The notes: generated by a model not told the origin, from the letters alone. A stretch of 64,000 bases of DNA from Taeniopygia guttata (GCF_048771995.1 NC_133041.1:4727324-4791323); one strand, 5' to 3'; positions 16,814 through 41,911 are shown, numbered from the stretch's first letter. Translations and numbers: made by a program.

Positions 16814-16839
16814 GTAAGGACAAAAAAATAACCCCAAAA

Positions 16840-20160: not shown

Positions 20161-20173
20161 CTCTCTGTCCCAG

Positions 20174-20278
20174 GTCGGGGCCTCTCTCTTCGCCAGCAAT
20201 ATCGGCTCCGGTCACTTCGTGGGTCTGGCCGGGACGGGCGCCGCGGGCGGCATCGCCGTGGGCGGCTTCGAGTGGAGC
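20174..20278 (+). CDS. SLC5A2: SLC5A2 exon 3; encodes [35 protein letters not shown]
   Basis: Acceptor ctgtcccag, donor gtgagt. This is the SLC5 (sodium:solute symporter) signature region and is near-identical to SGLT1 and SGLT2. Confidence 0.92.
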
Positions 20279-20282
20279 GTGA

Positions 20283-20470: not shown

Positions 20471-20600
20471 TTGGTTCTATCGCGATATATCGGCGCCATC
20501 TTGTGGCCGTTCCGCGGTATTGCCTCACCCGGGTTTGGCCACGCCCCTCTATCGCGATATTGGCCACGCCCCTATCGCGACATGGCCCCTCCCCCCACAG

Positions 20601-20660
20601 GGAATGTTCATTGTGCTGTTGCTGGGCTGGGTGTTCGTGCCGATCTACATGAGAGCGGGG
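20601..20660 (+). CDS. SLC5A2: SLC5A2 exon 4; encodes GMFIVLLLGWVFVPIYMRAG
   Basis: Acceptor ccccccacag, donor gtgaga. Matches SGLT2 [20 protein letters not shown]. Confidence 0.9.
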
Positions 20661-21339
20661 GTGAGACTGGTTTATACTGGTTTATACTGGGAGGGACTGG
20701 GAGGGACTGGGAGGGAACTGGGAGGGGACTGGGTTATACTGGTTTATACTGGGAGGGAGCTGGGAGGGAACTGGGTTATACTGGGAGGGACTGGGAGGGA
20801 ACTGGGTTATACTGGGAGGGACTGGGAGGGACTGGGAGGGGACTGGGAATGAACTGGGTTATACTGGTTTATACTGGGAGGGAGCTGGGAGGGAACTGGG
20901 TTATACTGGGAGGGACTGGGAGGGAACTGGTTTATACTGGGACGGACTGGGATGGACTGGGAATGGACTGGGTTATACTCGTTTATACTGGGAGGGACTG
21001 GGAGGGAACTGGGAGGGGACTGGGACAAACTGGGACAAACTGGGAGGGACTGGGAGGGGACTGGGAACGGAGTGGTTTATACTGGTTTATACTGGGAGGG
21101 ACTGGGAGGGAGCTGGGAGGGACTGGGACAAACTGGGACAAACTGGGAGGGACTGGGAATGGACTGGGTTATACTGGTTTTTACTGGGAGGGACTGGGAG
21201 GGGACTGGGACAAACTGGGAGGGACTGGGAATGAACTGAGTTATACTGGTTTATACTGGGAGGGACTGGGCGTGGCTTAGTGAGGGGTGGGCATGTCTCG
21301 GTCCCGGGTGGGCGTGGTCTGAGCGAGGGGCGTGGCCAG

Positions 21340-21599
21340 GTGAGCACCATGCCCGAGTACCTGGGGCGGGTGGGCGTGGTCTGATGGGGTGGGCGTGGTC
21401 TGAGCCCGGTGGGCGTGGCCAGGTGAGCACCATGCCCGAGTACCTGGGGCGGGTGGGCGTGGTCTGAGCCCGGTGGGCGTGGCCAGGTGAGCACCATGCC
21501 CGAGTACCTGGGGCGGGTGGGCGTGGCCCAGGGAAGGGTGGGCGTGGTCTGACCGGTGGGCGTGGCCAGGTGAGCACCATGCCCGAGTACCTGGGGCGG
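21340..21599 (+). other. Four decoy copies of the SLC5A2 exon 5 acceptor plus its first 30 nt (ggccag|GTGAGCACCATGCCCGAGTACCTGGGGCGG|gtgggc) at 21340-21369, 21423-21452, 21487-21516 and 21570-21599, inside a repeat of 60-90 bp immediately upstream of the real exon 5 (21671)
   Basis: Each copy has an AG acceptor, a 30-nt in-frame segment ([10 protein letters not shown]) and a downstream GT. Only the last copy continues into the real exon sequence (cgcttcggggg...). Confidence 0.85.
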
Positions 21600-21670
21600 G
21601 TGGGCGTGTCCTGGGGCGGTGGGCGTGGTCTGAGCGGGGTGGGCGTGGCCTGACCGAGGGGCGTGGCCAG

Positions 21671-21775
21671 GTGAGCACCATGCCCGAGTACCTGGGGCGG
21701 CGCTTCGGGGGCGGCCGGATCCGACTGTACCTGGCGGGGCTGTCCCTGATGCTCTACGTGTGCACCAAGATCTCG
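21671..21775 (+). CDS. SLC5A2: SLC5A2 exon 5; encodes [35 protein letters not shown]
   Basis: Acceptor ggccag, donor gtactg. Matches SGLT2 [35 protein letters not shown]. Four decoy copies of the first 30 nt of this exon lie just upstream (see findings). Confidence 0.9.
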
Positions 21776-23335
21776 GTACTGGGATATACTGGGAGGGACT
21801 GGGAGGGACTGGGAGGGACTGGGAGGGACTGGGAGGGACTGGGAACAAACTGGGTTATACTGGGAGGGACTGGGAATGGAGTGGGAGGGACTGGGAGGGA
21901 CTGGGAGGGACTGGGAATGAACTGGGAGGGACTGGGGGGGGACTGGGTTATACTGGGAGGGACTGGGAGGGACTGGGAATGAACTGGGTTATACTGGGAG
22001 GGACTGGGTTATACTGGGAGGGGACTTGGATAAACTGGGAGGGAATGGGATGTACTGGGAGGGCACTGGGAGGGACTGGGAGGGACTGGGTTATACTGGG
22101 AATGAACTGGGAGGGACTGGGAACAAACTGGGTTATACTGGGGGGGACTGGGAGGGACTGGGAGGGGATTGGAATGAACTGGGTTATACTGGGAGTGACT
22201 GGGAGGGACTGGGTTATACTGGGTTATACTGGGAGGGACTGGGAGGGAACTGGGAGGGACTGGGAGGGAACTGGGTTATACTGGGAGGGACTGGGAGGGA
22301 CTGGGAGGGAACTGGGAGTGGGGAGGAAACTCCAAATTCCACAGGGACCCCCCAGTTCCCTCCCAGTATAACCCAGTTTGTTCCCAGTCCCTCCCAGTTC
22401 CCTCCCAGTCCCTCCCAGTTTGTCCCAGTCAATTCCCAGTTCCCTCCCAGTCTGTTCCAGTGCCTCCCAGTCCATTCCCAGTTTGTCCCAGTTAATCCCA
22501 GTCCCTCTCAGTATAACCCAGTTTATTCCCAGTTCCCTCCCAGTCCCTCCCAGTCTGTCCCAGCATATCCCAGTCCCTCCCAGTTCCCTCCCAATCCATT
22601 CCCAGTTAATCCCAGTTAATCCCACTTCCCTCCCAGTCTCTCCCAGTTTATCCCAGTCCCTCCCAGTTCACTCCCATTTCCCTCCCAGTATAACCCAGTT
22701 TGTTCCCAGTCCTTCCCAGTCCCCTGCCAGCCCCTCCAGTACAAACCAGTATAACCCAGTTTGTTCCCAGTCCCTCCCAGTCTCTCCCAGTTTATCCCAG
22801 TCCCTCCCAGTTCACTCCCATTTCCCTCCCAGTATAACCCAGTTTATTCCCAGTTCCCTCCCAGTCCCTCCCAGTCCCTCCCAGTCCCTCTCAGTCACTC
22901 CCAGTACAAACCAGTCCATTCCCAGTTTATCCCAGTTCCCTCCCAGTCCTTCCCAGTTGCCTCCCAGTACAAACCAGTATAACCTAGTTTGTTCCCACTC
23001 CCTCCCAGTTCATCCCAGTCCCTCCCAGTTTATCCCAGTCAATTCCCCGTTCCCTCCCAGTCTGTTCCAGTGCCTCCCAGTCCATTCCCAGTTAATCCCA
23101 GTCTATCCCAGTCCCTCCCAGTCCCTCCCAGTCCATTCCCAGTATAACCCAGTTTATCCCAGTCTCTCCCAGTCCATTCCCAGTTCCCTCCCAGTCCCTC
23201 CCAGTTCCCTCCCAGTCCCTCCCAGTCCATTCCCAGTTTATCCCAGTCCCTCCCAGTCCATTCCCAGTTTATCCCAGTCTATCCCAGTGCCCCACAGCCC
23301 CTCCCAGTCCGTCCCAGTACAGACCAGTTTGGCAG

Positions 23336-23441
23336 GTGGACATGTACTCGGGGGCGCTGTTCATCCGCGAGGCGCTGGGCTGGGACCTGTACGGCTCCGT
23401 GGGGGCGCTGCTGGCCGTGACCGCGCTCTACACCGTCACTG
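23336..23441 (+). CDS. SLC5A2: SLC5A2 exon 6; encodes [35 protein letters not shown](G)
   Basis: Acceptor tttggcag, donor gtttgt. Matches SGLT2 [36 protein letters not shown]. Confidence 0.9.
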
Positions 23442-25014
23442 GTTTGTACTGGTTTATACTGGTTTGTACTGGTTTGGGCTGGGAGGGGCTGGGAGGGGTC
23501 TGGGAAGGGACTGGGTTGGACTGGGATAAACTGGGAGGGACTGGGAGGGGATGAAAGGGTTAAAAATGGGGAATGATCGGTGCTGGAGGGGATTTTTTGT
23601 ACTGGTTTGTACTGGTTTGTACTGGTTTGGGCAGGGAGGGACTGGGAGGGCTCTGGGAGGGACTGGGAGGGACTGGGAGGGAACTGGGAGGGACTGGGAT
23701 AAACTGGGAGGAAACAGGGAGGGAACTGGGAGGGACTGGGATAAACTGGAAATGGACTGGGAGGGAATTGGGACAAACTGGGAAGGAACTGGGATAAACT
23801 GGGAGGGAACTGGGATGGACTGGGAGGGACTGGGAGGGGATGAAAGGGTTAAAAATGGGGGATAATCGGTGCTGGAGGGGATTTTTTGTACTGGTTTGTA
23901 CTGGTTTTGTACTGGTTTGTACTGGTTTGGGCAGGGAGGGACTGGGATGGACTGGGATATACTGGGATGGACTGGGACAAACTGGGATGGACTGGGAGGG
24001 AACTGGGAGAAACTGGGAGGGAACTGGGAGGGACTGGGAGGGAACTGGGATGGACTGGGAGGGACTGGGAGGAACTGGGAGGGACTGGGAGGGACTGGGA
24101 ACAAACTGGGAAGGAACTGGGAGGGAACTGGGAGGGACTGGGAGGGACTGGGATAAACTGGAAATGGACTGGGAGGGAACTGGGACAAACTGGGAAGGAA
24201 CTGGGATAAACTGGGAGGGAACTGGGATGGACTGGGAGGGGTCTGGGGAGGGACTGGGATGGACTGGGAGGGACTGGGAGGGGATGAAAGGGTTAAAAAT
24301 GGGGGATAATCGGTGCTGGAGGGGATTTTTTTGTACTGGTTTGTACTGGTTTTGTACTGGTTTGTACTGGTTTGGGCAGGGAGGAACTGGGAGGGCTCTG
24401 GGAGGGGACTGGGAGGGCTCTGGGAGGGACTGGGAGGGAACTGGGACAAACTGGGAAGGAACTGGGATAAACTGGGAGGGAACTGGGATGGACTGGGACA
24501 AACTGGGAGGAAACTGGGAGGGAACTGGGAGAAACTGGGAGGGACTGGGAGGGAACTGGGACAAACTGGGAAGGAACTGGGAGGGAACTGGGAGGGACTG
24601 GGACAAACTGGGACAAACTGGGAATGGACTGGGAGCGAACTGGGAGGGACTGGGAAGGAACTGGGAGGAACTGGGACAAACTGGGAGGGAACTGGGATAA
24701 ACTTGGAGGGACTGGGACAAACTGGGTTATACTGGGAGGGAACTGGGAGGGACTGGTTTGGCACAGTGGGCGTGGCTTTATAGGGATGGGCGTGGCTTAA
24801 CTGGGTGTGGACGCTATATTTGCATAATGGGCGTGGCTTAACTGGGTGTGGATGCTGCATTTGCATAATGGGCGTGGCTTAACTGGGTATGGGCGCAATA
24901 TTTGCATAATGGGCGTGGCTTAACCGGGTGCGGACACGATTATTGCACGGTGGGCGTGGTTTAACTGGGTGTGGGCGTGGCCTGAGTGGGTGTGGTCATT
25001 GTGGGCGTGGCCAG

Positions 25015-25095
25015 GCGGGCTGACGGCGCTGATGTTCGCGGACCTGCTGCAGACCCTCATCATCCTCGTGGGCGCCTCCGTGCTGGCCGGCTACG
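25015..25095 (+). CDS. SLC5A2: SLC5A2 exon 7; encodes (G)GLTALMFADLLQTLIILVGASVLAGY
   Basis: Acceptor ggccag, donor GTgggg at 25096. Matches SGLT2 [26 protein letters not shown]. Confidence 0.88.
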
Positions 25096-26938
25096 GTGGG
25101 GGCACTGGTTTATACTGGTTTATACTGGTTATACTGGGTTATACTGGGTTATACTGGGTTATACTGGTTTATACTGGTTTATACTGGTTTATGCTGGGTT
25201 ATACTGGTTTATACTGGTTTATACTGGTTTATACTGGGTTATACTGGTTTATACTGGTTTATACTGGTTTATGCTGGGTTATACTGGTTTATACTGGTTT
25301 ATACTGGTTTATGCTGGGTTATACTGGTTTATACTGGTTTATACTGGTTTATACTGGGTTATACTGGTTTATACTGGGTTATACTGGGTTATACTGGTTC
25401 ATACTGGTTTATACTGGGTTATACTGGTTTATACTGGTTTATACTGGGTTATACTGGTTTATGCTGGGAGGGACTGGGAGGGACTGGGATGGAACTGGGA
25501 GGGAACTGGGAGGGACTGGGAGGGGACTGGGAGGGACTGGGAGGGACTGGGAACCACCACTGTGGTGCCTTACTGGTTTATACTGGGTTATACTGGTTTA
25601 TATTGGTTTATACTGGTCTATACTGGTTTATATTGGTTTTTACTGGTCTATACTGGGAGGGACTGGGAGGGACTGGAATGGAACTGGGAGGGGACTGGGA
25701 GGGACTGGGCAGTACCACTGTGGTGCCTTACTGGTTTATACTGGTCTATACTGGTCTATACTGGTTTATACTGGTTTATACTGGTTTATACTGGTTTATA
25801 TTGGTTCATACTGGTCTATACTGGTCTATACTGGTTTATACCGGTCCGTACTGGTCCCTGCCTACTGGGAGGACACAGTCCCCAAAACTACTGGGCCATA
25901 CTGGTCCATACTGGTCCATACCACTTTATACTGGTTTTTATTGGTTTATACTGGTTCATACTGGTTCATACTGGTCCATACTGGTTTATACTGGTCCATA
26001 CCACTTTATACTGTTTCATACTGGTTCATACTGGTCCATACTGGTTTATACTGGTCCATACTGGTCCAGGACCTTGTAGATAACAAACTGTGAGGAGTCA
26101 CAACCCACCCTCCAAACCCAGCCCAGCCTCCCATACTGGTTTATACTGGTCCATAGTGGTCCATATTAGTTTATACTGGTTCATACTGGTTTATACTGGT
26201 TTATACTGGTCCATACTGGTTTATACTGGTCCATACTGGTCCAGGACCTTGTAGATAACAAACTGGGAGGAGTCACAACCCACTTTCCAACCCTGTCCCT
26301 ATCTCCCATACTGGTTTATACTGGTCCATAGTGATCCATATTGGTTTATACGGTTCATACTGGTCCATACTGGTCCATACTGGTTTTTACTGGTTTATAA
26401 TGGTCCATACTGGTCCATACTGGTCCAGGACCTTGTAGATAACAAACTGGGAGGAGTCACAACCCACTCTCCAAACCCAGCCCAGCCTCCCATACTGGTT
26501 TATACTGGTCCATAGAGGTCCATATTAGTTTATACAGGTTCATACTGGTTCATACTGGTTTATACTGGTTTATAATGGTTTTTACTGGTCCATACTGGTC
26601 CGGGATCTTATAGAGAACTAACTGGGAGGAGTCACAACCCACTCTCCAAACCCAGGCCAGCCTCCCATACTGGTTTATACTGGTCCATAGTGGTCTATAT
26701 TAGTTTATACTGGTTCATACTGGTTCATACTGGTTTATAATGGTCCATACTGGTCCATACTGGTCCAGGACCTTGTAGATAACAAACTGGGAGGAGTCAC
26801 AACCCACCCTCCAAACCCATCCCTACCTCCCATACTGGTTTATACTGGTCCATACTGCTCTATACCACTTTATACTGGTTTTTATTGGTTCATACTGGTT
26901 CATACTGGTTCATACTGGTCCATACTGGTTTCCGGCAG

Positions 26939-27138
26939 CGCTGGGCGCCGTGGGGGGGTACCAGGGCCTGCAGGAGCGCTACCCCCTGGCCCTGGCACCC
27001 AACGCCTCGGGGCCCTGCGGGCGGCCCCGGCCCGACGCCTTCCACCTCCTGCGGCACCCGAGCGGGGGAGACCTGCCCTGGCCGGGACTGGTGCTGGGAC
27101 TGGGAATCATCTCGGGCTGGTACTGGTGCACCGACCAG
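26939..27138 (+). CDS. SLC5A2: SLC5A2 exon 8; encodes [67 protein letters not shown]
   Basis: Acceptor tccggcag, donor gtggga. Matches the SGLT2 extracellular loop and TM (...[41 protein letters not shown]). Three partial 3'-end copies carrying the donor lie in the intron downstream. Confidence 0.9.
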
Positions 27139-27307
27139 GTGGGACTGGGTTATACTGGGAGGGACTGGGAGGGACTGGGAGGGACTGGGAACAAACTGGG
27201 TTATACTGGGAGGGACTGGGAGGGACTGGGAGGGACTGGGAGGGGACTGGAGGGGACTGGGTTATACTGGGAGGGGACTGGGAGGGACTGGGAGGGACTG
27301 GGAGGGA

Positions 27308-28193
27308 CTGGGAATCATCTTGGGCTGGTACTGGTGCACTGACCAGGTGGGACTGGTTTATACTGGGAGGCACTGGGAGGGACTGGGAACAAACTGGGTT
27401 ATACTGGGAGGGACTGGGTTATACTGGGAGTGGACTGGGAGGCACTGGGAGGCACTGGGTTATACTGGAAGGGAACTGGGAAGGAGCACTGGGCTGTAAC
27501 TGGGAGCACTGGGAGTGACTGGGAGCACTGGGAGCACTGGGTTATACTGGGAGCACTGGGTTATACTGGGTTGTACTGGGTTGTACTGGGTTATACTGGG
27601 TTATACTGGGAGCACTGGGACCTGCCCTGGCCCGGGCTGGTGCTGGGACTGGGAATCATCTCGGGCTGGTACTGGTGCACCAACCAGGTGGGACTGGGTT
27701 ATACTGGGAGGCACTGGGAGGGACTGGGAACAAACTAGGTTGTACTGGGAGGGACTGGGAGGGGACTGGAGGGGACTGGGTTATACTGGGAGGGACTGGG
27801 AGGGACTGGGAGGGGACTGGGAGGGACTGGGAGGGACTGGGAGGGACTTGGAGGGGACTGGGAGGCAGTGGGTTATACTGGGTTATACTGGGTTATACTG
27901 GGAGTGGACTGGGAGGCACTGGGTTATACTGGGAGGGGACTGGGAGGCACTGGGTTATACTGGGAGGGGACTGGGAAGGAGCACTGGGCTGTAACTGGGA
28001 GCACTGGGGTGTAACTGGTCTGTAACTGGGAGCACTGGGAGTGACTGGGAGCACAGGGAGCACTGGGTTATACTGGGAGAGACTGGGAGCACTGGGTTAT
28101 ACTGGGTTATACTGGGAGCACTGGGACCTGCCCTGGCCCGGACTGGTGCTGGGGCTGGGAATCATCTCGGGCTGGTACTGGTGCACCGACCAG
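27308..28193 (+). other. Three partial copies of the SLC5A2 exon 8 3' end with an intact donor (…GGAATCATCTCGGGCTGGTACTGGTGCACCGACCAG|gtgggactgg) at about 27308-27346, 27619-27687 and 28125-28193, within intron 8
   Basis: The second and third copies also carry the upstream coding segment GACCTGCCCTGGCC. Confidence 0.85.
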
Positions 28194-30161
28194 GTGGGAC
28201 TGGGTTATACTGGGAGGGACTGGGAGGCACTGGGAGGGGACTGGGAGGGACTAGGAGGGGACTGGGAGGCACTGGGTTATACTGGGTTATACTGGGAGGG
28301 GACTGGGAGGGACTGGGATAGACTGGGAGGGGACTGGGAAGGAGCACTGGGCTGTAACTGGGAGCACTGGGAGTGACTGGGAGCACTGGGTTATACTGGG
28401 AGCACTGGGTTATACTGGGTTATACTGGGAGCACTGGGTTATACTGGGTTATACTGGGAGGGACTGGGAAGGAGCACTGGGCTGTAACTGGGAGCACTGG
28501 TCTCTAACTGGTCCCACCAGTCTCTAACTGGTCTCTAACTGGCCTCTAACTGGTCCCACCAGTGTCTAACTGGTCTCTAACTGGTCTCTAACTGGTCCCA
28601 CCAGTGTCTAACTGGTCTCTAACTGGTCTCTAACTGGTCCCACCTGCTCTAACTGGTCTCTAACTGGTCTCTAACTGGTCCCACCTGCTCTAACTGGTCT
28701 CTAACTGGTCCCACCAGTCTCTAACTGGTATCTAACTGGTCTCTAACTGGTCTCTAACTGGTCTCTAACTGGTCCCACCAGTCTCTAACTGGTTTCTAAC
28801 TGGTCCCTAACTGGTCTGTAACTGGTCCCACCAGTCTCTCACTGGTTTCTAACTGGTCTCTAACTGGTCCCACCAGTCTCTAACTGGTCTCTAACTGGTC
28901 CCACCAGTCCCTAACTGGTCTCTAACTGGTCCCTAACTGGTCTCTAACTGGTCCCTAACTGGTCTCTAACTGGTCCCACCAGTCTCTAACTGGTCTCTAA
29001 CTGGTCCCACCAGTCTCTAACTGGTCCCTAACTGGTCCCTAACTGGTCTCTGACTGGTCCCACCAGTCTCTAACTGGTTTCTAACTGGTTTCCCACCAGT
29101 CTCTAACTGGTCCCTAACTGGTCCCTAACTGGTCTCTGACTGGTCCCACCAGTCTCTAACTGGTCTCTAACTGGTCTCTAACTGGTCCCACCAGTCTCTA
29201 ACTGGTCTCTAACTGGTCTGTAACTGGTCCCACCAGTCTCTAACTGGTCTCTAACTGGTCCCACCAGTCTCTAACTGGTCTCTAACTGGTCTCTAACTGG
29301 TCCCACCAGTCTCTCACTGGTCTCTAACTGGTCCCTAACTGGTCTCTAACTGGTCCCACCAGTCTCTAACTGGTCTCTAACTGGTCCCACCAGTCCCTAA
29401 CTGGTCCCACCAGTCCCTAACTGGTTTCTAACTGGTTTCTAACTGGTCTCTAACTGGTCTGTAACTGGTCCCACCAGTCTCTAACTGGTCCCTAACTGGT
29501 TTCTAACTGGTCTCTAACTGGTCCCACCAGTCTCTAACTGGTCCCTAACTGGTCTGTAACTGGTCCCACCAGTCTCTAACTGGTCCCTAACTGGTTTCTA
29601 ACTGGTCTCTAACTGGTCCCACCAGTGTCTAACTGGTCTCTAACTGGTCTCTAACTGGTCTCTAACTGGTCCTACCAGTCTCTAACTGGTCTCTAACTGG
29701 TCTGTAACTGGTCCCACCAATCTCTAACTGGTCCCACCAGTCTCTAACTGGTCTCTAACTGGTCTGTAACTGGTCCCACCAGTCTCTAACTGGTCTCTAA
29801 CTGGTCTCTAACTGGTCCCACCAGTCCCTAACTGGTCCCTAACTGGTATGTAACTGGTCTGTAACTGGTCCCTAACTGGTCTCTAACTGGTCCCACCAGT
29901 CTCTAACTGGTCTCTAACTGGTCCCTAACTGGTCCCACCAGTCTCTAACTGGTCTCTAACTGGTCTGTAACTGGTCCCACCAGTCTCTAACTGGTCTCTA
30001 ACTGGTCCCACCAGTCTCTAACTGGTCCCACCAGTCTCTAACTGGTCTCTAACTGGTCCCACCAGTCCCTAACTGGTCCCTAACTGGTCTGTAACTGGTC
30101 CCACCAGTCCCTAACTGGTCTCTAACTGGTCCCTAACTGGTCTCTGACTGGTCCCTCCCAG

Positions 30162-30297
30162 GTGATCGTGCAGCGCTGCCTCGCCGGCCGCTCCCTCACG
30201 CACGTCCGCGCCGGCTGCGTCGTCTGCGGCTACCTCAAGGTGCTGCCCATGTTCCTGATGGTGCTGCCCGGCATGGCCGCCCGCGTCCTCTTCCCGG
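30162..30297 (+). CDS. SLC5A2: SLC5A2 exon 9; encodes [45 protein letters not shown]
   Basis: Acceptor tccctcccag, donor GTcaga at 30298. Matches SGLT2 [45 protein letters not shown]. Confidence 0.92.
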
Positions 30298-31243
30298 GTC
30301 AGACCCCTACTGGTTTATACTGGTTTATACTGGTTTATACTGGTTTAGAATGATTTATATTCGTTTAAGGCTCTTATTCAATATGGCGCCCAAAATGGCT
30401 GCCCAAAATGGCTGCCCAAAATGGCTGCCCAAAATGGCTGCCTCCATTGGTGTTTACAAGATGGCTGCCCAAAATGGCTGCCATAGACTGAATCTAAGAT
30501 GGCTGCCCAAGATGGCTCCCCATTGTGGCCACCCATTGGTGCATACTGGTTTTTACTGGTTTATACTGGTTTATACTGGTTTATTTTGAGTTTAAGACAC
30601 TTATTCAATATGGCGCTCAAAATGGCTGCCCAAAATGGCTGCCTCCACTGGTGTTTACAAGATGGCTGCCCAAAATGGCTCCCCACTGCGATCAGCCATT
30701 GGTGCATACTGGTTTTACTGGTTTATACTGGTTTATACTGGTTTATACTGGTTTATACTGGTTTATACTGGTTTATACTGGTTTATACTGGTTTTACTGG
30801 TCCATACTGGTCCATACTGGTTTGGACTGGTCTATACTGGTTTATACTGGTTTATACTGGTCCATACTGGTTTATACTGGTTTATGCTGGTCCGTACTGG
30901 TCCATACTGGTTTATACTAATTTTACTGGTCCATACTGGTTCATACTGGCCCATACTGGCCCATACTGGTCCATACTGGTTTATACTGGTTTATACTGGT
31001 TTTTCTCATCCATACTGGTCCATACTGGTCCATACTGGTCCATACTGGTCCATACTGGTTTATACTGGTTTATGCTGGTCCATACTGGTCCATACTGGTT
31101 TATACTGGTTTTTCTCATCCATACTGGTTTATACTGGTCCATACTGGTCCATACTGGTCCATACTGGTCCATACTGGTCCATACTGGTTTATACTGGTCC
31201 ATACCGGTTTATACTGGTTTATACTGGTTTTTACTGGTCCCAG

Positions 31244-31351
31244 AGGTCGTTGGCTGCGCTGACCCCCAGGGCTGTTCCCGGGCCTGCGGCTCCGCCCTCG
31301 GCTGCTCCAACGTGGCCTATCCCCGGCTGGTGCTCAGCCTGCTGCCCCCCG
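31244..31351 (+). CDS. SLC5A2: SLC5A2 exon 10; encodes EVVGCADPQGCSRACGSALGCSNVAYPRLVLSLLPP(G)
   Basis: Acceptor ggtcccag, donor gtaatt. Matches SGLT2 [37 protein letters not shown]. Three 3'-end-plus-donor copies lie in the downstream intron. Confidence 0.9.
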
Positions 31352-32830
31352 GTAATTAATGACCCCTAATTAGCGCTCATTAATTATTCATGAGCCATTA
31401 TTAGTGATTTATTAGTTATTATTAGCGATTATTAGCGATTATTAGCGATTATCAGTGATTATTAGTGATCCTTAGTACCGACCTATCCCCGGCTGGTGCT
31501 CAGCCTGCTGCCCCCCGGTAATTAATGACCCCTAATTAGCGCTCATTAATTATTCATGAGCCATTATTAGTGATTTATTCGTGATTATTAGCGATTATTA
31601 GTGATTATCAGCGATTATCGGTGATTATTAGTGATCATTAGTACCGACCTATCCCCGGCTGGTGCTCAGCCTGCTGCCCCCCGGTAATTAATTATGCATA
31701 ATTAGCTCTCATTAATTATTCATGAGCGATTATTTGTGATTTATTAGCGATTATTAGTGATTATTAGCAATTATTATTGATAATTAGTGATCATTAGTAC
31801 CGACCTATCCCCAGCTGGTGCTCAGCCTGCTGCCCCCCGGTAATTAATTACCCCTAATTAGTGCTCATTAATTATTCATGAGCGATTATTAGTGATTTAT
31901 TAGCTCCAATTAGCGATTATGAAGTACTATTAGCGGTTATTAGTTCATTAATAATGCTAATTAGTGATTTATTCGTGATTCTTCATTATTAGATCATAAT
32001 TAGTGATTATTAGCGATTAATTACTGATTATTAGCCATCAATAATTAATTTTTACGAATTATCTGTAATTATTACCTTATTTTTGAGGCTATTAATTCGA
32101 ATTTTGGGCTAATAAGGAGCAATTAAAACTAATAATTAATTAGTAATTCTAATTTGGGGGCTAATAACGCTAATTAGGGGCTAATTTGTGCATTATTAGG
32201 ACAATTAATTAGCTATTAATCCTAATTTGGGGTTAATAATTCAATTTTTGGGTCTAATAACTCCATTTTTTGGCCGATTTTCGCAGTTTTTTCACTAATT
32301 TTCACTGGGTTTTCGCCAATAATTAATATTAATTAATAATTAATAATTATTTCGGGCTAATAATTCAAATTTTGGTCCTAATAACTCCATTTTTGGTCCT
32401 AATAATTCGATTTTTGGGCTAATAACTCCATTTTTTGGCCGATTTTCGCCCTTTTTTTGCCGATTTTCGCCATTCTTTCACCATTATTTATTATTACTTA
32501 ATAATTAATTATTAATTTTGGGCTAATAACTCTAATTATGATCCTAATAACTCTAATTATGATCCTAATAATTCAATTTTTGGGTCTAATAATTCCACTT
32601 TTTGGCCGATTTTCGCCATTTTTTCACCAATTTTCACCATTCTTTCACCGCTAATTAATATTAATTACTAATTAATAATTATTTCGGGCTAATGATTCAA
32701 ATTTCAGTGCCAATAACTCCATTTTTGGCCCTAATAATCCCATTTTTGGGGCTAATAACTCCATTTTTTGGCTGATTTTCGCCGTTTTTTCGCCGATTTT
32801 CGCCATTTTTTTTGCTAATTAACGCTAATT
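31352..32830. repeat. SLC5A2 intron 10: a tandem repeat of about 160 bp that includes the exon 10 3' end and its donor (31352-32100), then an AT-rich higher-order repeat of about 190 bp (ggctaataactccattttttggccgattttcgcc..., 32100-32830)
   Basis: Direct periodicity. Confidence 0.85.
31479..31839 (+). other. Three copies of the SLC5A2 exon 10 3' end plus donor (CGACCTATCCCCGGCTGGTGCTCAGCCTGCTGCCCCCCG|gtaattaa) at about 31479-31517, 31643-31683 and 31801-31839, inside the 160-bp repeat of intron 10
   Basis: The real exon 10 ends at 31351 with the same 39 nt and donor. Confidence 0.85.
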
Positions 32831-32840
32831 AATTAATTAG

Positions 32841-32991
32841 GGCTGCGCGGGCTGATGCTGGCGGTGGTGCTGGCCGCGCTGATGTCGTCGCTGGCCTCCA
32901 TCTTCGCCAGCTCGGCCGCGCTCTTCACGCTCGACGTCTACCGGCGGCTGCGGCCGCGGGCGGGGCCACGACACCTCCTGGTGGCCGGCAG
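32841..32991 (+). CDS. SLC5A2: SLC5A2 exon 11; encodes (G)[49 protein letters not shown](R)
   Basis: Acceptor aattag, donor GTgggc at 32992. RLRPRAGPR matches the SGLT2-specific RLRPRAGDR, whereas SGLT1 has KVRKRASEK. Confidence 0.92.
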
Positions 32992-33868
32992 GTGGGCACG
33001 GCTGGGGGCACCTGGGGGCACCTGGGGGCACCTGGGATACACCTGGGCACACCTGGGATACACCTGGGCATGGTTAAACACACGTGGGCACACCTGAAAT
33101 ACACCTGAGATACACCTGGGGGCACCTGGGGGTACCTAAAATACACCTGGGCACACCTGAGATACACCTGAGATACACCTGGGCACAGCTGGGGGCACCT
33201 AAAATACACCTGGGCATGGCTGGGGGCACCTGGGATACACCTGGGCACACCTGGACACACCTGGGCACACCTGGGCATGGTTAAACACACCTGAGATACA
33301 CCTGGGCACACCTGGGATAGACCTGGGCACACCTGGGGCACACCTGGGCACACCTAAAACACACCTGGGCACACCTGGGCACAGCTGGGCACACCTGAGA
33401 CACACCTGGGATAGACCTGGGCACACCTGGGGGATATTTTGGGCACACCTGGGCGCACCTGGGCATGGCCAGGGGCACCTGGGGGCATGCCTGGGCACAC
33501 CTAAAATACACCTGGGCACACCTGGGCACGCCTGGGGCACACCTGGGCACGGCTGAGTGCACCTGGGGGTACATGGAGCACACCTGGGGCACACCTGGGC
33601 ACACCTGGGGCACACCTGGGCACACCTGGGCACACCTGGGGCACACCTGGGCACACCTGGGCACACCTGGGCATGGTTTAACACACCTGGGGCACACCTG
33701 GGCACACCTGGGATAGACCTGGGCATGGTTTAACACACCTGGGGCACACCTGGGACACACCTGGGCACACCTGGGGGATATTTTGGGCACACCTGGGCAC
33801 ACCTGGGGGATATTTTGGGCACACCTGGGCGCACCTGGGCACACAGGTGACCCCTCCCCTGCCCGCAG

Positions 33869-33940
33869 GCTGTGGGTGGTGGCCATGGTGGGGCTGAGCC
33901 TGGCCTGGCTGCCGGTGCTGCGGGCGGCGCGGGGGGCGCA
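33869..33940 (+). other. Truncated upstream duplicate of SLC5A2 exon 12 (acceptor plus the first about 72 nt: [23 protein letters not shown]) that runs straight into the acacctgggc satellite
   Basis: Identical to 34848-34919, including the cccctgcccgcag acceptor. No in-frame donor follows. Confidence 0.8.
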
Positions 33941-34847
33941 CCTGGGCACACCTGGGCACACCTGGGCACACCTACAATACACCTGGGCACACCTGGGCAC
34001 ACCTGGGCACACCTGGGCACACCTGGGCACACCTGGGCATGGCCGGGGGCACCTGGGGCACACCTGGGCATGGTTAAACACACCTGGGATACACCTGAGA
34101 TACACCTGGGCACAGCTGGGCACACAGGTGACCTCAGGTGGCCCCGGGTGATCTCAGGTGACCTCAAGGGACCCAAATTTGGGGTTCTCAGGTGTCCAAA
34201 AACCCAAAATTTGAGCTGCAGGTGACCTTGAAGGACTCAAATTTTTGGGTTCTGGAGGTCCTGGAGATCCCAAATTTTTTGGGGGTGATCCCGGCTGACC
34301 CCGGGTGACCCCAGGTGAGCTCAGGTGTCCAAGTGACCTTGAAGGACCCAAATTTGGGTCATTCCAAGTGTCCAAAAACCCCAAATTTGAGATCCTGGTG
34401 ACCAAATTTTGGGTTTTTGACCTCAAAATGACCCCGAATTTTTTGGGGGTGACCCCGGCTGACCCTGGTTGACGTCAGGTGACCCCGGCTGACCTCAGGT
34501 GTCCAAGTGACCTTGAAGGACCCAAAATTGGGTCATTCCAAGTGGCCAAAAACCCAAAATTTGAGCTGCAGGAGACCATGAAGGACCCAAATTTTGGGTT
34601 TTTGACCTCCAAACGACCCCGAATTTTTTGGGGGTGACCCCGGCTGACCCCGGGTGACCCCAGGTGACCTCGGGTATCCAAGTGACCTTGAAGGACCCAA
34701 ATTTGAGCTTCTCAAGTGTCCAAAAACCCCAAAATTTCAGCTCCGGGTGACCTCAAACTCCCCAAATTTTGGGTTTTTGACCTCAAAATGACCCCGAATT
34801 TTTTGGGGGTGACCCCGTCTGACCCCGCTGACCTCCCCTGCCCGCAG

Positions 34848-35016
34848 GCTGTGGGTGGTGGCCATGGTGGGGCTGAGCCTGGCCTGGCTGCCGGTGCTGC
34901 GGGCGGCGCGGGGGGCGCAGCTCTTCGATTACCTGCAGGCGCTGTCCTCCTACCTGGCCCCGCCCGTGGCCGCCGTCTTCTGCCTGGCCGTGCTCGTGCC
35001 CCGCGTCAACGAGCCC
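34848..35016 (+). CDS. SLC5A2: SLC5A2 exon 12; encodes (R)[56 protein letters not shown]
   Basis: Acceptor cccgcag, donor gtgagc. Matches SGLT2 [57 protein letters not shown] truncated upstream duplicate sits at 33869-33940. Confidence 0.9.
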
Positions 35017-36516
35017 GTGAGCGGCACACCTGGGCACACCTGGGCACACCTGGGGGCACCTGGGGGGGAGATTGGCACACCTGGGGTGCACCTGGGCACA
35101 CCTGGGGCACCTGGGGGCACACCTGGGCACACCTGGGCACACCTGGGCACACCTGGGGGGGAGATGGGCACACCTGGGGGGGTTTGGGAGGGGTTTAAAG
35201 GGGGTTTGGGGCACACCTGGGCACACCTGGGGCACCTGGAGGGGTTTAAAGCACAGCTGGGCACACCTCAGGGTGTTTAAAGAGGGTTTGAGGTTCACCT
35301 GGGGGCACCTGGGCACACCTGGGGGAGAGATGGGCACACCTGGGCACACCTGGAGGGGTTAAAACAGGTTTGGGAGGCACCTGGGGGCACCTGGGGGCAC
35401 CTGGGGGGGAGATTGGCACACCTGGGCACACCTGGGGGGGTTTGGGAGGGGTGTAAAGTGGGTTTGGGGCTCACCTGGGCACACCTGGGGGCACCTGGGC
35501 ACACCTGGGGCGCACCTGGGCACACCTGGGCACACCTGGGGGATATTTTGGGCACACCTGGGCACACCTGGGTACACCTGGGTACACCTGGGGGGGTTTA
35601 AAGGGGGTTTGGCGCACACCTGGGCACACCTGGGCACACCTGGGTGGGGTTAAAATCGGTTGGGGGGACACCTGGGGGCACCTGGGTAGGAGATTGGCAC
35701 ACCTGGGCCCACAGGGGGGCACCTGGAGGGGTTTAAAGGGGGTTTGGGGCACACCTGGGCACACCTGGGCACACCTGGGTGGGGTTTGGGAGGCACCTGG
35801 GGGCACCTGGGCACACCTGGGGGGCACTGGAACCCATCTGGGGGGTGGGGGAGGGGAAAAAAGGGGGTTTGGGAGGAGCAATTTGGGGCTCCAGGTGGCC
35901 CCAAAACCCCAAATTTTGACCCCAAAACCCCCAAATTTTGACCTAAAACCCCAAATTCTGTCCCCAAAACCCCCAAATTTCATCTCCACGTGACCCCAAA
36001 CCCCCAAATTTGGGGTTTGTGAACATCCACGTGACCCCAAAACCCCCAAATTTCAGCTCCAAATGAGCCCAAAACCCCCAAATTTTGACCCCAAAACTCT
36101 CAAATTTTCACCCAAAATGCCCCAAATTTCATCTCCAAGTGATCCCAAAACCCCAAATTTGGGGCTCCTGAACACCCAAGTGACCCCAAGAACCCCAAAT
36201 TTCACCTCCAAATGACCCCAAAACCCCCGAATTTCGGCTCTTTTCGCCCCCAAAACACCCAAATTTTGACCCAAAACCCCCAAATTTTGACCCAAGCCCC
36301 CCAAATTTCATCTCCACGTGACCCCAAAACACCAAATTTGGGGTTCCTGAGCATCCAGGTGACCTCAAATCCCTCCAGTTTCAGATCCAAATGGCCTCAG
36401 AACCCCCAAATTTTGAGGCAAAAATCCCGATTTTTGACCCAAAAACCCCAAATTTTGCCCCCAAAATCCCAAAATTTTTGGGTTTTTTTCCCAAATTTGT
36501 GTTTTTTCTCCCCGAG

Positions 36517-36586
36517 GGCGCGTTCTGGGGGCTGCTGGAGGGTCTGGGGCTGGGCCTGGCCCGGCTGATCCCCGAATTTGGGGCTC
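36517..36586 (+). other. Partial upstream duplicate of the SLC5A2 exon 13 5' end with its acceptor (ccccgag|GGCGCGTTCTGGGGGCTGCTGGAGGGTCTGGGGCTGGGCCTGGCCCGGCTGATCCCCGAATT)
   Basis: Compare with the real exon at 37151-37220. The copy diverges into satellite after CCCGAATTT. Confidence 0.8.
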
Positions 36587-37150
36587 CCGAACATCCCGGG
36601 GACCCCAAAACCCCCAAATTTCACCTTCAAATGACCCCAAAACCTCCAAATTTCGACTCTTTTGGCCCCCAAAACCCCCAAGTTTTGACCCAAAACCCCC
36701 CAAATTTTGACCCAAAATGCCCCAAATTTCATCTCCACATGACCCCAAAACCCCAAATTTGGGGTTCCTGAGCATCCAGGTGATCCCCCCCCAAAAAGAA
36801 TTCAGGTCCAAATGATCTCAGGACCCCCAAATTTTGACCCCAAAAACCCCAAATTTTGATCATAATCCATCAAATTTTGACCCCAAAACCCCAAATTTTG
36901 ACCCAAAAACCCCAAATTTTCACCCTAAATTCCCCAAATTTCATCTCCACGTGACCCCAAAACCCCAAATTTGGGGTTCCTGAGCATCCAGGTGACCCCA
37001 AAACCCCCAAATTTGTGCTCCAAATGACCTCAGAACCCTCAAAATTTGACGCAAAAATCACGAATTTTGACCCCAAAACGCCAAATTTTGCTCCCAAAAC
37101 CCCGAATTTTTGGGGTTTTTTTTCCCAAATTTGTGTTTTTTCTCCCCGAG

Positions 37151-37366
37151 GGCGCCTTCTGGGGGCTGCTGGGGGGTCTGGGGCTGGGCCTGGCCCGGCT
37201 GATCCCCGAATTCCTGCTGGGCTCCGGCTCCTGCGGCGCCCCCGGGCGCTGCCCGGCGCTGCTCTGCGGGATGCACTACCTGCACTTCGCCGCGCTGCTC
37301 TTCCTCCTCACCGCCGCCATCGTCATCGCCGTGTCCTGCTGCCACCCGCCCATCCCCGAGGTCCAC
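37151..37366 (+). CDS. SLC5A2: SLC5A2 exon 13; encodes [72 protein letters not shown]
   Basis: Acceptor tctccccgag, donor gtgagt. Matches SGLT2 [51 protein letters not shown]...PIPRKH. A partial 5' copy lies at 36517-36586, and three 3'-end-plus-donor copies lie downstream. Confidence 0.9.
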
Positions 37367-38110
37367 GTGAGTCTCGGGAGGTTTTTTGGGGGAAAACGGT
37401 GAAAAAATGGTGAAAAACGGTGAAAAAATGGCGAAAAACGGTGAAAAAACGGCCAAAAAACGGCCAAAAAACGGCCAAAAATGCGCTCAAAACGGGCTCA
37501 AAATGGGCACAAAAGTGGGACAAAAAAAGCCCAAAATGGGACAAAATGGGCCCAAAAATGGCCCAAAATGAGCCCAGAATGGGTCAAACTGAAATGAGAG
37601 ATTTTGGGAATTTTTGGGAATTTTTTTGGAATTTTTTTGGGGAAAAAATGGCGAAAAACGGTGAAAAAACGGCGAAAAAACAGCAAAAAAACGGCCAAAA
37701 ATGTGCTCGAAACGCGCTCAAAATGGCCCCAAAAGTGGGACAAAATGGGCCCAAAAATGGTCCCAAAAATGGCCCAAAAGGAGCCCAGAATGGGCCAAAA
37801 TGAAAGGTGTGAGTTTGGGAATTTTTGGGAATTTTTGGGAATTTTTTTGGGAAAAACCAGAAAAAATGACAAAAAAAGGTGAAAAAATGACGAAAAAATG
37901 GCGAAAAATGAGCCTAAAATGGCCCCAAAATGGGACAAAATGGCCCCAAAATCAGCCCAAAATGACCCAAAAATGGGACAAAATCGCCTCAAAATCAGCC
38001 CAAAATGAGCCCAAAATGAGCCAAAAATGACCTAAAATGGCCCCAGAATGACTAAAAACGCCCCAAAATAACCAAAATGGCCCAAAATTGCCCCAAATGG
38101 CGGCAGCGGA

Positions 38111-39308
38111 GCCGCGCTGCTCTTCCTCCTCACCGCCGCCATCGTCATCGCCGTGTCCTGCTGCCACCCGCCCATCCCCGAGGTCCACGTGAGTCTCGGG
38201 AAGTTTTTTGGGGAAAAAACGGTGAAAAAATGGTGAAAAACGGTGAAAAAATGGCCAAAAAATGGCCAAAAATGCGCTCGAAACGGGCTCAAAATGGGCA
38301 CAAAAGTGGGACAAAAAAAGCCCAAAATGGGACAAAATGGGCCCAAAAATGGCCCAAAAGGAGCCCAGAATGGGTCAAACTGAAATGTGAGAGCTTGGGA
38401 ATTTTTGGGAATTTTTGGGAATTTTTTTGGGAAAAACCAGAAAAAATGACAAAAAAAGGTGAAAAAATGACGAAAAAATGGCGAAAAATGAGCCCAAAAT
38501 GGCCCCAAAATCAGCCCAAAATGAGCCCAAAATGACCCAAAAATGGGACAAAATGGCCACAAAATCAGCCCAAAATCAGCCCAAAATGACCCCAAAATGA
38601 CCTAAAATGGCCCCAGATTGACTAAAAATGCCCCAAAATAACCAAAATGGCCCAAAATTGCCCCAAATGGTCGCAGCGGAGCCGCGCTGCTCTTCCTCCT
38701 CACCGCCGCCATCGTCATCGCCGTGTCCTGCTGCCACCCGCCCATCCCCGAGGTCCACGTGAGTCTCGGGAAGTTTTTTTGGGGAAAAACGGCGAAAAAA
38801 TGGTGAAAAACGGTGAAAAAACGGTGAAAAAAGGGCGAAAAAACGGCCAAAAATGCGCTCGAAATGAGCTCAAAATGGCCCCAAAATGGGACAAAATGGG
38901 CCCAAAAATGGCCCAAAAGGAGCCCAGAATGGGTCAAACTGAAATGAGAGATTTTGGGACTTTTTGGGAATTTTTGGGGGAAAAAACCAGAAAAAATGAC
39001 AAAAAAAGGTGAAAAAATGACGAAAAAATGGCAAAAAATGAGCCCAAAATGGCCCCAAAATCAGCCCAAAATGAGCCCCAAAATCAGCCCAAAATGAGCC
39101 AAAAATGGGACAAAATGGCCACAAATCAGCCCAAAATGACCCAAAAATGACCTAAAATGGCCCCAGAATGACTAAAAATGCCCCAAAATAACCAAAATGG
39201 CCCAAAATTGCCCCAAATGGTCGCAGCGGAGCCGCGCTGCTCTTCCTCCTCACCGCCGCCATCGTCATCGCCGTGTCCTGCTGCCACCCGCCCATCCCCG
39301 AGGTCCAC
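38111..39308 (+). other. Three copies of the SLC5A2 exon 13 3' end plus donor (GCCGCGCTGCTCTTCCTCCTCACCGCCGCCATCGTCATCGCCGTGTCCTGCTGCCACCCGCCCATCCCCGAGGTCCAC|gtgagtctcggg) at 38111-38188, 38681-38758 and 39231-39308
   Basis: Each copy terminates one tandem unit of about 560 bp. The real exon ends at 37366 with the identical sequence. Confidence 0.85.
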
Positions 39309-40695
39309 GTGAGTCTCGGGAAGTTTTTTTGGGGAAAAACGGCGAAAAAATGGTGAAAAACGGTGAAAAAACGGTGAAAAAAGGGCGAAAAAACGGCCAA
39401 AAATGCGCTCGAAATGAGCTCAAAATGGCCCCAAAATGGGACAAAATGACCCAAAAATGGGACAAAATGGCCCCAAAAATGGCACAAAAGGAGCCCAAAA
39501 TGGGTCAAACTTAAATGTGAGATTTTGGGACTTTTTGGGAATTTTTTTGGGATTTTTTTCCCAATTTTTGGGTGATTTTTGTGAATTTGAGGTGGATTTT
39601 GCCATTTTTGGGCAATTTTGGGTGGATTTTGATAAATTTTGGTTTAATTTTTGCCAAATTTTGGTTGGATTTCTGTTATTTTGGGGTGGATTTTTGACAT
39701 TTTTGGGGTGGATTTTGCCCAATTTTGGGTGGATTTGGCAGAATTTTGGGCAGATTTTGCCTTTTTTGGGTTGATATTTGTGGATTTTGGGTCAATTTTA
39801 GTGAATTTTGGGTGGATTTTGCCATTTTTGGGGTCAATTTTGCCATTTTTGGCTGGATTTTTGTGAATTTTGGATTTTGGCAAATTTTGGCTCAATTTTT
39901 CCAATTTTTGAGTGTTTTTTGTGAATTTTGGGTGTTTTTTTCTAAATTTTGAGTGTTTTTTGTTAATTTGGGGTCTATTTTTCCAACTTTTGAGTGATTT
40001 TTGTGAATTTTGGGTTGATTTTTCTGAATTTTGGGTGGATTTTGCAGAATTTCGGGTGGATTTTGCCAGTTTTGGGTCGATTTTTGTGAATTTTGGGTGG
40101 ATTTCGCCATTTTTTGGGTAATTTCGCCATTTTTGGGCTCGATTTTTGTGCATTTTGGGTCGATTTTGCCATTTTTGGTTGATTTTTGTGAATTTTGGGC
40201 GGATTTCCCCATTTTTGGGGTCGCTTTTGCCATTTTTGGGGTCGATTTTTGTGAATTTTGGTTGATTTTTGTGAATTTTGGGCGGATTTTGCCATTTTTG
40301 GGGTCGATTTTGCCATTTTTGGGGTCGATTTTGCCATTTCTGGGTCGATTTTTGTGCATTTTGGGTGGATTTTGCCATTTTTGGGGTCCATTTTGCCATT
40401 TTTTGGGTCGATTTTGCCATTTTTTGGTTGATTATTGTGAATTTTGGGTCGATTTTGCCGAATTTTGGGGTCGATATTGCCATTTTTGGGGTCAATTTTG
40501 TCATTTTTTGGTTGATTTTTGTGAATTTTGGGCGGATTTCGCCATTTTTGGGGTCGATTTTGCCATTTTTTGGTTGATTTTTGTGAATTTTGGGCGGATT
40601 TCGCCATTTTCGGGGTCGATTTTTCCATTTTCGGGGTCGATTTTGCCGAATTTTGGGTGGATTTTGGTGAATTTTGGGCGATTTCCCGATTCCAG

Positions 40696-40795
40696 CTGCA
40701 CAGGTTGGTGTTCAGCCTCCGGAACAGCCGCGAGCCCCGAATCGACCTCGACGCGCCCAAAGAGCCGCCCCAAAATTTGGGGGTCGAACTCGGGG
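40696..40795 (+). CDS. SLC5A2: SLC5A2 exon 14; encodes LHRLVFSLRNSREPRIDLDAPKEPPQNLGVELG
   Basis: Acceptor attccag, donor GTgaga at 40796. LHRLVFSLRNS(K/R)EERxDLDA matches SGLT2 exactly. The 3' boundary is the only in-phase donor before the exon 15 acceptor, so it is less certain. The predicted cytoplasmic loop is shorter than the human one. Confidence 0.7.
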
Positions 40796-41738: not shown

Positions 41739-41911
41739 ATTTGGAAGCGGCGCCGGGGGCGGGGCCTGGAGCGGGGGGCGTGGCCTCGGAGGGGGGCGTG
41801 GCCTCGGCGGAAGCTCCGCCCCCCGAGGACCCCAAATGGAGCCGATTGGTCAATATCAACGCTCTGGTGCTGATGGGCGTGGCCTCCTTCCTGTGGGGAT
41901 ATTTTGCCTAA
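41739..41911 (+). CDS. SLC5A2: SLC5A2 terminal coding exon; encodes (D)[56 protein letters not shown]
   Basis: Acceptor caattgcag. TAA stop at 41909-41911. The C-terminal TM matches SGLT2 ([26 protein letters not shown]). An AATAAA lies at about 41922. Confidence 0.85.

Follow-up and report, generated by a model that had tools for sequence, protein, structure and literature searches.

How do pieces of coding exons, splice sites included, come to stand several times over in the introns beside them while the gene itself stays intact? This question is raised by a 64,000-nucleotide stretch of Taeniopygia guttata (zebra finch) DNA (GCF_048771995.1 NC_133041.1:4727324-4791323), hereafter the window, with positions counted from its first letter. 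The window carries an SLC5A2 (SGLT2-like) gene of 15 coding exons on the plus strand at 16733-41911, as located by tblastn and sequence reading. A preliminary description of the window had reported copied donor or acceptor boundaries of exons 8, 10, 12 and 13 of this gene. Our analysis suggests, with a probability of about 0.85, that the locus is a case of exon stuttering sensu Hron et al. 2026, that is, of local tandem duplication of units that straddle exon-intron borders. The phenomenon is not new: exon stuttering has been published, and chicken SLC5A2 is among its examples.

Each exon was compared with the window by blastn-short, following the design of the published exon-stuttering screen, which asks for matches of at least 20 nt that outscore a shuffled-intron control. 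For the two nulls used, the introns were shuffled 30 times as single nucleotides and 30 times in a way that kept the 10-mer satellite units. The search with all exons returned 11 partial exon copies in 27140-39520, with none further in that interval, and a tandem series of exon 5 acceptor copies upstream of it, spaced 64-101 bp apart (Table 1). The counts were identical to those first described, with three copies for exon 8, three for exon 10, one for exon 12, and one acceptor and three donor copies for exon 13. No copies of exons 9 and 11 were found in the window by blastn-short, nor did the same search of each exon reveal a complete duplicated exon there. All 15 significant copies scored 60-155 bits, and the highest scores among the shuffles were 24.3 bits (mononucleotide) and 50.1 bits (10-mer blocks). 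Every real copy thus outscored every shuffle, and chance is excluded; the similarity is also not limited to short low-complexity matches, the outcome that the preliminary description had named as fatal to its proposal. Without exception (15/15), the copies lie on the same strand as their source and in the adjacent intron, and the source directly abuts the exon border (distance 0). They cover 22-43% of the source exon, with one splice site each, and affect 6 of the 14 introns of the gene.

Table 1. Coordinates of exon-derived copies, repeat units, SLC5A2 exons and neighbouring genes in the window.
Feature	Position	Strand	Description
Exon 8 donor copy A	27304-27346	+	43 nt, 95%; source 27096-27138
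Exon 8 donor copy B	27619-27687	+	69 nt, 96%; source 27070-27138
Exon 8 donor copy C	28125-28193	+	69 nt, 97%; source 27070-27138
Exon 10 donor copy 1	31482-31517	+	36 nt, 100%; source 31316-31351
Exon 10 donor copy 2	31648-31683	+	36 nt, 100%; source 31316-31351
Exon 10 donor copy 3	31804-31839	+	36 nt, 97%; source 31316-31351
Exon 12 acceptor copy	33869-33940	+	72 nt of exon 5′ end, 100%; source 34848-34919
Exon 13 acceptor copy	36517-36578	+	62 nt of exon 5′ end, 97%; source 37151-37212
Exon 13 donor copy 1	38111-38188	+	78/78 nt identical; source 37289-37366
Exon 13 donor copy 2	38681-38758	+	78/78 nt identical; source 37289-37366
Exon 13 donor copy 3	39231-39308	+	78/78 nt identical; source 37289-37366
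Exon 5 acceptor plus first 30 nt, four copies	21340, 21423, 21487, 21570 (21340-21599)	+	blastn-short
Exon 8 donor family	27070-28495	+	three collinear higher-order units (alignment): 27070-27618 (549 bp), 27619-28124 (506 bp), 28125-28495 (371 bp)
Exon 10 donor family	31316-31960	+	TRF period 166, 3.6 copies, 91% matches
Exon 12 acceptor patch	33853-33940	+	88 nt, 100% identical to 34832-34919
Exon 13 acceptor copy unit	36300-36578	+	217 nt intron, acceptor, 62 nt exon; 91% identical to 36933-37212 (~280 nt)
Exon 13 donor family	37289-39560	+	units of 822, 570 and 550 bp plus a truncated unit of ~330 bp (alignment)
Exon 1	16733-16813	+	coding exon
Exon 2	19061-19132	+	coding exon
Exon 3	20174-20278	+	coding exon
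Exon 4	20601-20660	+	coding exon
Exon 5	21671-21775	+	coding exon
Exon 6	23336-23441	+	coding exon
Exon 7	25015-25095	+	coding exon
Exon 8	26939-27138	+	coding exon
Exon 9	30162-30297	+	coding exon
Exon 10	31244-31351	+	coding exon
Exon 11	32841-32991	+	coding exon
Exon 12	34848-35016	+	coding exon
Exon 13	37151-37366	+	coding exon
Exon 14	40696-40795	+	coding exon
Exon 15	~41795-41911	+	coding exon, start approximate (acceptor position unmapped)
SGF29	~2.0-5.8 kb	+	Tudor domain, Pfam 63 bits
GIY-YIG (SLX1-like) gene	10396-10890	-	neighbour of SLC5A2
MYLPF-like myosin light chain gene	55667-60854	-	neighbour of SLC5A2

The copies are embedded in repeat units of about 160-980 bp that belong to intronic minisatellites. 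Coverage by tandem repeats, as called by Tandem Repeats Finder (TRF), was 81% for the window and 61-100% for the introns of the gene, and amounted to 0.85-1.00 in the copy-bearing introns 4, 8, 10, 11, 12 and 13. In the exon 8, 10 and 13 donor families, whole units, not exon pieces alone, align collinearly and over their full length, in support of the earlier proposal that local tandem duplication carried exon sequence into the satellite arrays. Each exon 8 unit consists of the 69-nt 3′ end of the exon, the donor CAG/gtgggactgg (slashes within sequences mark junctions) and 300-480 nt of an ACTGGG-type 10-mer satellite, and the first unit of the family begins within the real exon. Copy A is part of a nested duplication of about 200 bp (27096-27303 and 27304-~27485), and its start falls within the exon motif GGGACTGGGA, which is the same as the satellite unit. 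The exon 10 units (166, 166 and 156 bp, followed by a fourth without a defined end) combine a 36-nt exon end, the donor CCG/gtaattaat and an AT-rich ATTAGTGATT-type satellite. In the exon 13 donor family, each unit joins a 78-nt exon end to the donor CAC/gtgagtctcggg and to A-rich satellite of the AAAATGGCCC and AAAACGGTGA types. A 12-nt filler, GG(C/T)(G/C)GCAGCGGA (GGCGGCAGCGGA), precedes each exon 13 donor copy (38099-38110, 38669-38680 and 39219-39230); it is neither satellite nor the exon sequence upstream of the source, and it may represent a templated insertion at the original junction.

The acceptor copies are built as the mirror image. The exon 12 patch comprises 16 nt of polypyrimidine tract and AG followed by 72 nt of exon and is embedded in GGGCACACCTG satellite; its 3′ junction, GGGCGCA/CCTGGGC, sits in a satellite-like exon motif. 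At the exon 13 acceptor copy, the 3′ junction CCCCGAATT/TGGGG runs on into CCCCAAATTTGGGG satellite. When exon and intronic parts of the donor units were compared, the exon part was the less divergent: 0/78 positions versus 4-10% for exon 13, 0-1/36 versus 5-20% for exon 10, and 2-3/69 versus 15-17% for exon 8. This conservation of the exon part fits gene conversion from the selected exon; satellite slippage together with alignment noise would yield the same pattern, and the data do not separate the two.

With regard to splicing, the signals in the copies are as intact as had been claimed. All nine donor copies are identical to the real donors from -3 to +10, and the acceptor copies match the real acceptors over the preceding 20 intron bases for exon 12 and 30 for exon 13. 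The real exons are intact, the coding sequence of exons 1-14 is untouched, and the productive sites are in every case the donor that comes first and the acceptor that comes last, which are the pair bounding a normal-sized exon. When computed for each of the 9 decoy donors and 6 decoy acceptors, any use of a decoy led to an in-frame stop, mostly in combination with a frameshift. The decoy sites are probably not used, and the spliceosome presumably picks the productive pair by exon definition. Loci of this kind are natural experiments in splice-site choice, in which as many as four identical donors follow one another and just the first is productive, and they are traps for gene annotation and short-read mapping.

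For introns of chicken dot chromosomes, Hron et al. described ‘sequence stuttering’, of which ‘exon stuttering’ is a subset (preprint of September 2025, 10.1101/2025.09.16.676548; Genome Biol Evol, February 2026, PMC12954441). Exon stuttering means that the lateral parts of a coding exon, along with the neighbouring splice site, recur in tandem across the adjacent intron (PMC12954441). In chicken it affects 115 genes and 236 introns (3.4% of dot-chromosome introns), with over 90% of the sources no farther than 1 base from the border; there are 1-44 copies (median 4), each of 20-187 bp (median 36) (PMC12954441). The chicken host introns are full of simple repeats and polymorphic in length among chickens, this polymorphism being one of the three main features in the paper; the exons are intact, the shuffled-intron control of the screen was 42.1 bits, and the supplementary list includes chicken SLC5A2 at chr38:911984-951178 (PMC12954441). 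The zebra finch locus is alike in having direct tandem copies of exon edges with a splice site in the adjacent intron, a border-flush source, copies of 30-78 nt with 1-4 per edge (chicken, 20-187 nt and 1-44), host introns that are nearly all tandem repeat, and an untouched real exon. Five of the defining features of exon stuttering, namely direct adjacent copies, a source at the border, a score above the shuffles, a repetitive intron and an intact exon, are found here. However, the window comes from a passerine, holds other copies and is denser in them (6/14 introns versus 3.4% in chicken), and, whereas the paper calls the expansions strictly local, the ACTGG-core satellite family of the window fills many introns as well as intergenic DNA.

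Other known systems share only some of these features. According to the passages retrieved from the telomere-to-telomere (T2T) zebra finch papers (10.1101/2025.10.14.682431, and its companion on non-B DNA, 10.1101/2025.10.17.683159), the introns of dot chromosomes consist to more than 70% of tandem repeats, whose units are multiples of 10-11 bp, in genes that are euchromatic and GC-rich, and sequence stuttering is cited there. The window agrees with those passages in its 10-11 bp units and its 61-100% intron coverage, whereas exon-derived copies do not appear in them; G-quadruplex (G4) enrichment is not specific to exon-copy introns in the window. Tandem exon duplication of the mutually exclusive or cassette type likewise involves local tandem duplication of exon sequence with splice sites, but the copies in the window are partial rather than complete exons, carry a single splice site, and would truncate the protein if used. 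Higher-order repeat (HOR) arrays and variable number tandem repeats (VNTRs) resemble the locus in their head-to-tail units of several hundred bp built from 10-11 bp monomers with 80-96% identity, and in copy numbers that differ between species while landmarks are shared. Here, in contrast, the unit includes a functional piece of exon, and the array is anchored in the exon at one end. As both the phenomenon and the chicken ortholog have already been published, the value of the present analysis lies in confirmation and a modest extension. Its additions are the recurrence across species at the same exon edges, shared landmarks with lineage-specific copies, two generations of copies, and the contrast in conservation within units. 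A further addition is a satellite motif conserved at orthologous introns, which is the basis of an unproven reading in which exons re-seed the satellites.

The orthologous loci of seven assemblies (Aphelocoma, Oenanthe, Zonotrichia, Empidonax, Anas acuta, Guaruba and kagu) were screened in the same way as the window. In Aphelocoma, the exon 13 3′ end (96 nt) has been copied four times. In Oenanthe, copies were found of the 3′ ends of exon 5 (five), exon 6 (one), exon 8 (one), exon 9 (four) and exon 13 (one, 114 nt) and of the 5′ ends of exon 8 (one) and exon 11 (one); for exon 5, it is the end opposite to that of the window that was copied (3′ end, 63 nt, five times). Zonotrichia carries four copies of the exon 8, three of the exon 9 and 13 of the exon 10 3′ end, and the duck Anas acuta carries three of the exon 9 3′ end. 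No exon copies were found in the loci of Guaruba (parrot) and Rhynochetos (kagu) or in the Empidonax flycatcher contig, which holds part of the gene only. Nearly all copies in the other birds are border-flush, the exception being a 27-nt piece of exon 5 in Oenanthe that falls 4 nt short. By a rough tally over the window and the other loci, the copies reach at most about 60% of the length of their exon. The breakpoints of the exon 13 3′ copies differ by species (78, 96 and 114 nt), and at species-variable sites the copies agree with the exon of their own species. These results suggest that the events were lineage-specific or were homogenised after the lineages split.

The preliminary description had looked to orthologous loci to settle whether the duplications are lineage-specific; copies are present in four other birds, and their breakpoints and copy numbers are species-specific, whereas the affected exon edges are partly the same. 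Intron lengths also differ strongly between species, as do copy numbers. The recurrence in songbirds and duck with lineage-specific breakpoints indicates that the process is long-lived and ongoing and not a peculiarity of chicken. The parrot and kagu orthologs are compact (about 13 kb versus about 25 kb, with some introns of only 93-124 bp), and being free of copies they show that the degree of stuttering at one gene varies strongly between bird orders. The parrot satellites are unrelated, being of the CTATGGGG and CCCCATTG types. Several of the avian SGLT2 models retrieved are partial or flagged as low quality.

The copies are of different ages. In the real exon 8, two synonymous changes are present at 27084 and 27087 (CCC GGG to CCG GGA). 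Copy B (27633/27636) has neither change and keeps C15 and G18, and copy C (28139) has the second change only. The first site is C in exon 8 of all other birds, and the second is G in most of them; the copies therefore keep older states. In intron 8 of Zonotrichia, five decayed pieces, CTGGGAATCATCTAAA (22541, 23011, 23401, 23727 and 23906), carry the A state of other passerines, and Zonotrichia exon 8 and its four fresh copies (22272, 22437, 22897, 23296 and 23801) carry the newer C state. Two generations of exon 8-derived sequence thus coexist in one Zonotrichia intron. A 22-nt landmark, GGAGCACTGGGCTGTAACTGGG, has four occurrences in the window's intron 8 and six in that of Zonotrichia, and is absent from the other loci; to judge from such motifs, the arrays themselves can be old. 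Layered copies with older synonymous states may serve as a rough clock of array turnover.

We propose that exon stuttering at this locus would proceed in four steps. Frequent local tandem duplications of about 60-1000 bp would arise throughout the minisatellite introns. Where a duplicated unit straddles an exon-intron border, exon end, donor and intron would be repeated together, or in mirror-image order where the border is an acceptor; the copy beside the rest of the exon would still complete it, and the extra partial copy would stay in the intron. Selection would then remove exon-internal or whole-exon duplications, since these alter the protein, which is the proposed reason why only border-flush copies are seen. 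In the third step, unequal exchange or replication slippage between units would shift the copy number, which ranges from 1 to 4 per exon edge in the window and reaches 13 at exon 10 in Zonotrichia. In the fourth, old copies would decay as new ones arise. Satellite-like exon motifs would probably guide misalignment at some breakpoints. The unit anatomy behind the first and third steps, and the evidence for the fourth, are directly observed. The selective filter is suggested by the 15/15 flush borders and the intact gene. The preliminary description had the duplications begin inside exons. Exon sequence is indeed duplicated, but what the data display is only border-straddling units, the sole exon-touching kind that spares the coding sequence. 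We infer the molecular duplication pathway, as well as gene conversion between the exon and its copies, and copy-number instability may likewise affect this locus.

Several observations weigh against this account. The array of about 700 bp of GGTGACCCC that stands ahead of the real exon 12 is missing from the distal unit, and the exon 12 copy therefore needs more than one simple event, for instance a subsequent deletion or expansion, or else a template switch. Homology at the junctions is uneven as well. Satellite-like exon motifs are found at junctions of exon 8 (GGGACTGGGA), exon 12 (GGGCGCA), exon 13 (CCCCGAATT) and exon 9 (GATGG(T)GCTGCCC), but the 3′ junctions of exons 10 and 13 show at most 3 nt of homology. 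In a k-mer test of 25 junctions, 6 had a 7-mer present at least three times in the host intron, and the mean percentile was 0.61 versus 0.5 expected; the overall signal is weak, and microhomology at every breakpoint is supported only in part. Junction homology thus helps at some breakpoints and is not required. G-quadruplexes were also rejected as a trigger, as their coverage does not separate copy-bearing from other introns, being 0.00 in introns 10 and 13 and 0.47-0.57 in the copy-free introns 2 and 6.

Other origins can be weighed against the same evidence. Rather than being products of straddling-unit duplication, some copies might be patches, short pieces of exon with a splice site pasted into a satellite array that was already there. 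Possible routes are fork stalling and template switching, polymerase-theta-type end joining, and gene conversion that starts from exon motifs resembling the satellite. The exon 12 copy would suit this reading, given its 88 nt of 100% identity, the GGGCACACCTG satellite on both of its sides and the missing array of about 700 bp; the non-satellite filler GGCGGCAGCGGA before the exon 13 3′ copies is of a sort known from templated-insertion junctions, and some junctions fall in satellite-like exon motifs. In the exon 8, exon 10, exon 13 3′ and exon 13 5′ copies, however, homology remains in register through the whole unit, as tandem duplication predicts, and all copies are direct repeats that share the strand of their source and stay within the adjacent intron. 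We therefore regard a patch origin as improbable. An artefact of assembly might be suspected in a window that is 81% tandem repeat, the more so as dot-chromosome sequence is described as hard to sequence in the passages retrieved. Yet particular sites distinguish the copies from each other and from the exon, among them sites where a copy keeps an older state now lost from the exon; the internal indels differ among units, and four other assemblies, each independent, hold copies in the same gene. Raw nanopore reads verified the phenomenon in chicken (Hron et al. 2026, PMC12954441), and an artefact is hardly credible.

A regulatory role would have the copies act as selected alternative splice sites or cassette exons of SLC5A2, for example in unproductive splicing. 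Their perfectly kept splice cores, an exon-derived part far better conserved than the intronic part of the units, and the involvement of the same exon edges in several species would all suit such a role. It is nonetheless very unlikely: each copy offers one splice site, every use leads to a premature stop, and the copy number, the breakpoints and the affected exons vary by species, with parrot and kagu having no copies. The conservation, moreover, is explicable by gene conversion from the selected exon or by satellite slippage and misalignment noise. Border-straddling tandem duplication accordingly remains the reading that we prefer.

A wider role for the exons can be suggested tentatively, although we are doubtful of it: exon edges and splice regions might act as permanent seeds that re-found minisatellites, while gene conversion involving the selected exon might keep the exon parts uniform. 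The clearest case is a 13-mer satellite of intron 9, CCAA(G/A)ATGGC(C/T)GC, which lies at 30379-30685 of the window. It was found in five passerine loci (including the window), in kagu (51 copies) and in duck (55 copies), and only the parrot is without it. The two variants of the 13-mer carry ATGGCCGCCC and ATGGCTGCCC and match two adjacent segments of the exon 9 3′ end (ATGGTGCTGCCCGGCATGGCCGCCC; ATGG(TG)CTGCCC, ATGGCCGCCC). From these matches the intron 9 satellite looks exon-derived and would be either very old or repeatedly re-seeded. By our own estimate, duck and songbirds split about 90-100 million years ago. If true, seeding by exons would explain why the same satellite motif occupies the same intron across deeply diverged orders, why exon segments are better kept, and why decayed and fresh copies coexist.

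The satellites show further regularities. The ACTGG-core 10-mer family (ATACTGGTTT, ACTGGGAGGG and CATACTGGTC) fills introns 1, 2 and 4-9 (16814-31243), with its reverse complement in intron 5, and is also present outside the gene at 43.3-47 kb and 51.5-52.4 kb; the expansions are thus not strictly local to one intron. Both ACTGGGAGGG and ATACTGGTTT occur in orthologous introns of other passerines and duck, and ACTGGGAGGG also in kagu. An origin of each satellite from its own flanking exon was rejected, as no clean diagonal emerges from the matrix of 8-mers shared between exons and introns. Introns 4-8, for example, are all rich in the exon 8 motif GGGACTGGGA. In the 3′ part of intron 8 (28496-30153), about 158 copies of the 11-mer ACTGGTCTCTA end 8 nt before the exon 9 acceptor; the unit junctions of this array read CTCTAAC, which resembles a branch point, so that a possible source of the array is the exon 9 acceptor with its branch-point and polypyrimidine region. 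The ACTGGTCTCTA unit is also present in Oenanthe and Zonotrichia. Satellite arrays start about 0-10 nt from splice sites (23436-23470, 20655-20690 and 25090-25120), and the exon 6 donor (CACTG/gtttgtactggttt) is in register with the ATACTGGTTT unit. A literature search on the satellite unit strings returned nothing relevant.

The exon map behind these results was obtained by tblastn, at first with an approximate human SGLT2 sequence as probe, and then confirmed by tblastn with database proteins of Aphelocoma, Oenanthe and Grus, with borders set from the sequence. The reading frame is continuous across exons 1-14, whose 13 introns are all GT-AG, and the Pfam family SSF (PF00474) spans the assembled protein (431 bits, profile positions 1-406 of 406). 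The top database matches were avian ‘sodium/glucose cotransporter 2-like’ proteins with 84-93% identity, including those of Aphelocoma (92%), Oenanthe (90%) and Zonotrichia (93%), whereas SGLT1 proteins match at only about 51-56%. The tblastn matches, the frame and the SSF domain bear out both the identification of SLC5A2 and the numbering of exons 8, 10, 12 and 13 in the preliminary description.

The gene is flanked by an SGF29, an SLX1-like and a MYLPF-like gene, whose human counterparts lie in 16p11.2. These neighbours fit the expected genomic neighbourhood and would indirectly favour a dot-chromosome location; chicken SLC5A2 lies on dot chromosome 38. No exon stuttering was seen in the MYLPF-like gene, where each exon is single-copy by tblastn with an approximate chicken MYLPF probe. 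In four orthologous loci, a UVB_sens_prot gene lies downstream of SLC5A2 on the minus strand.

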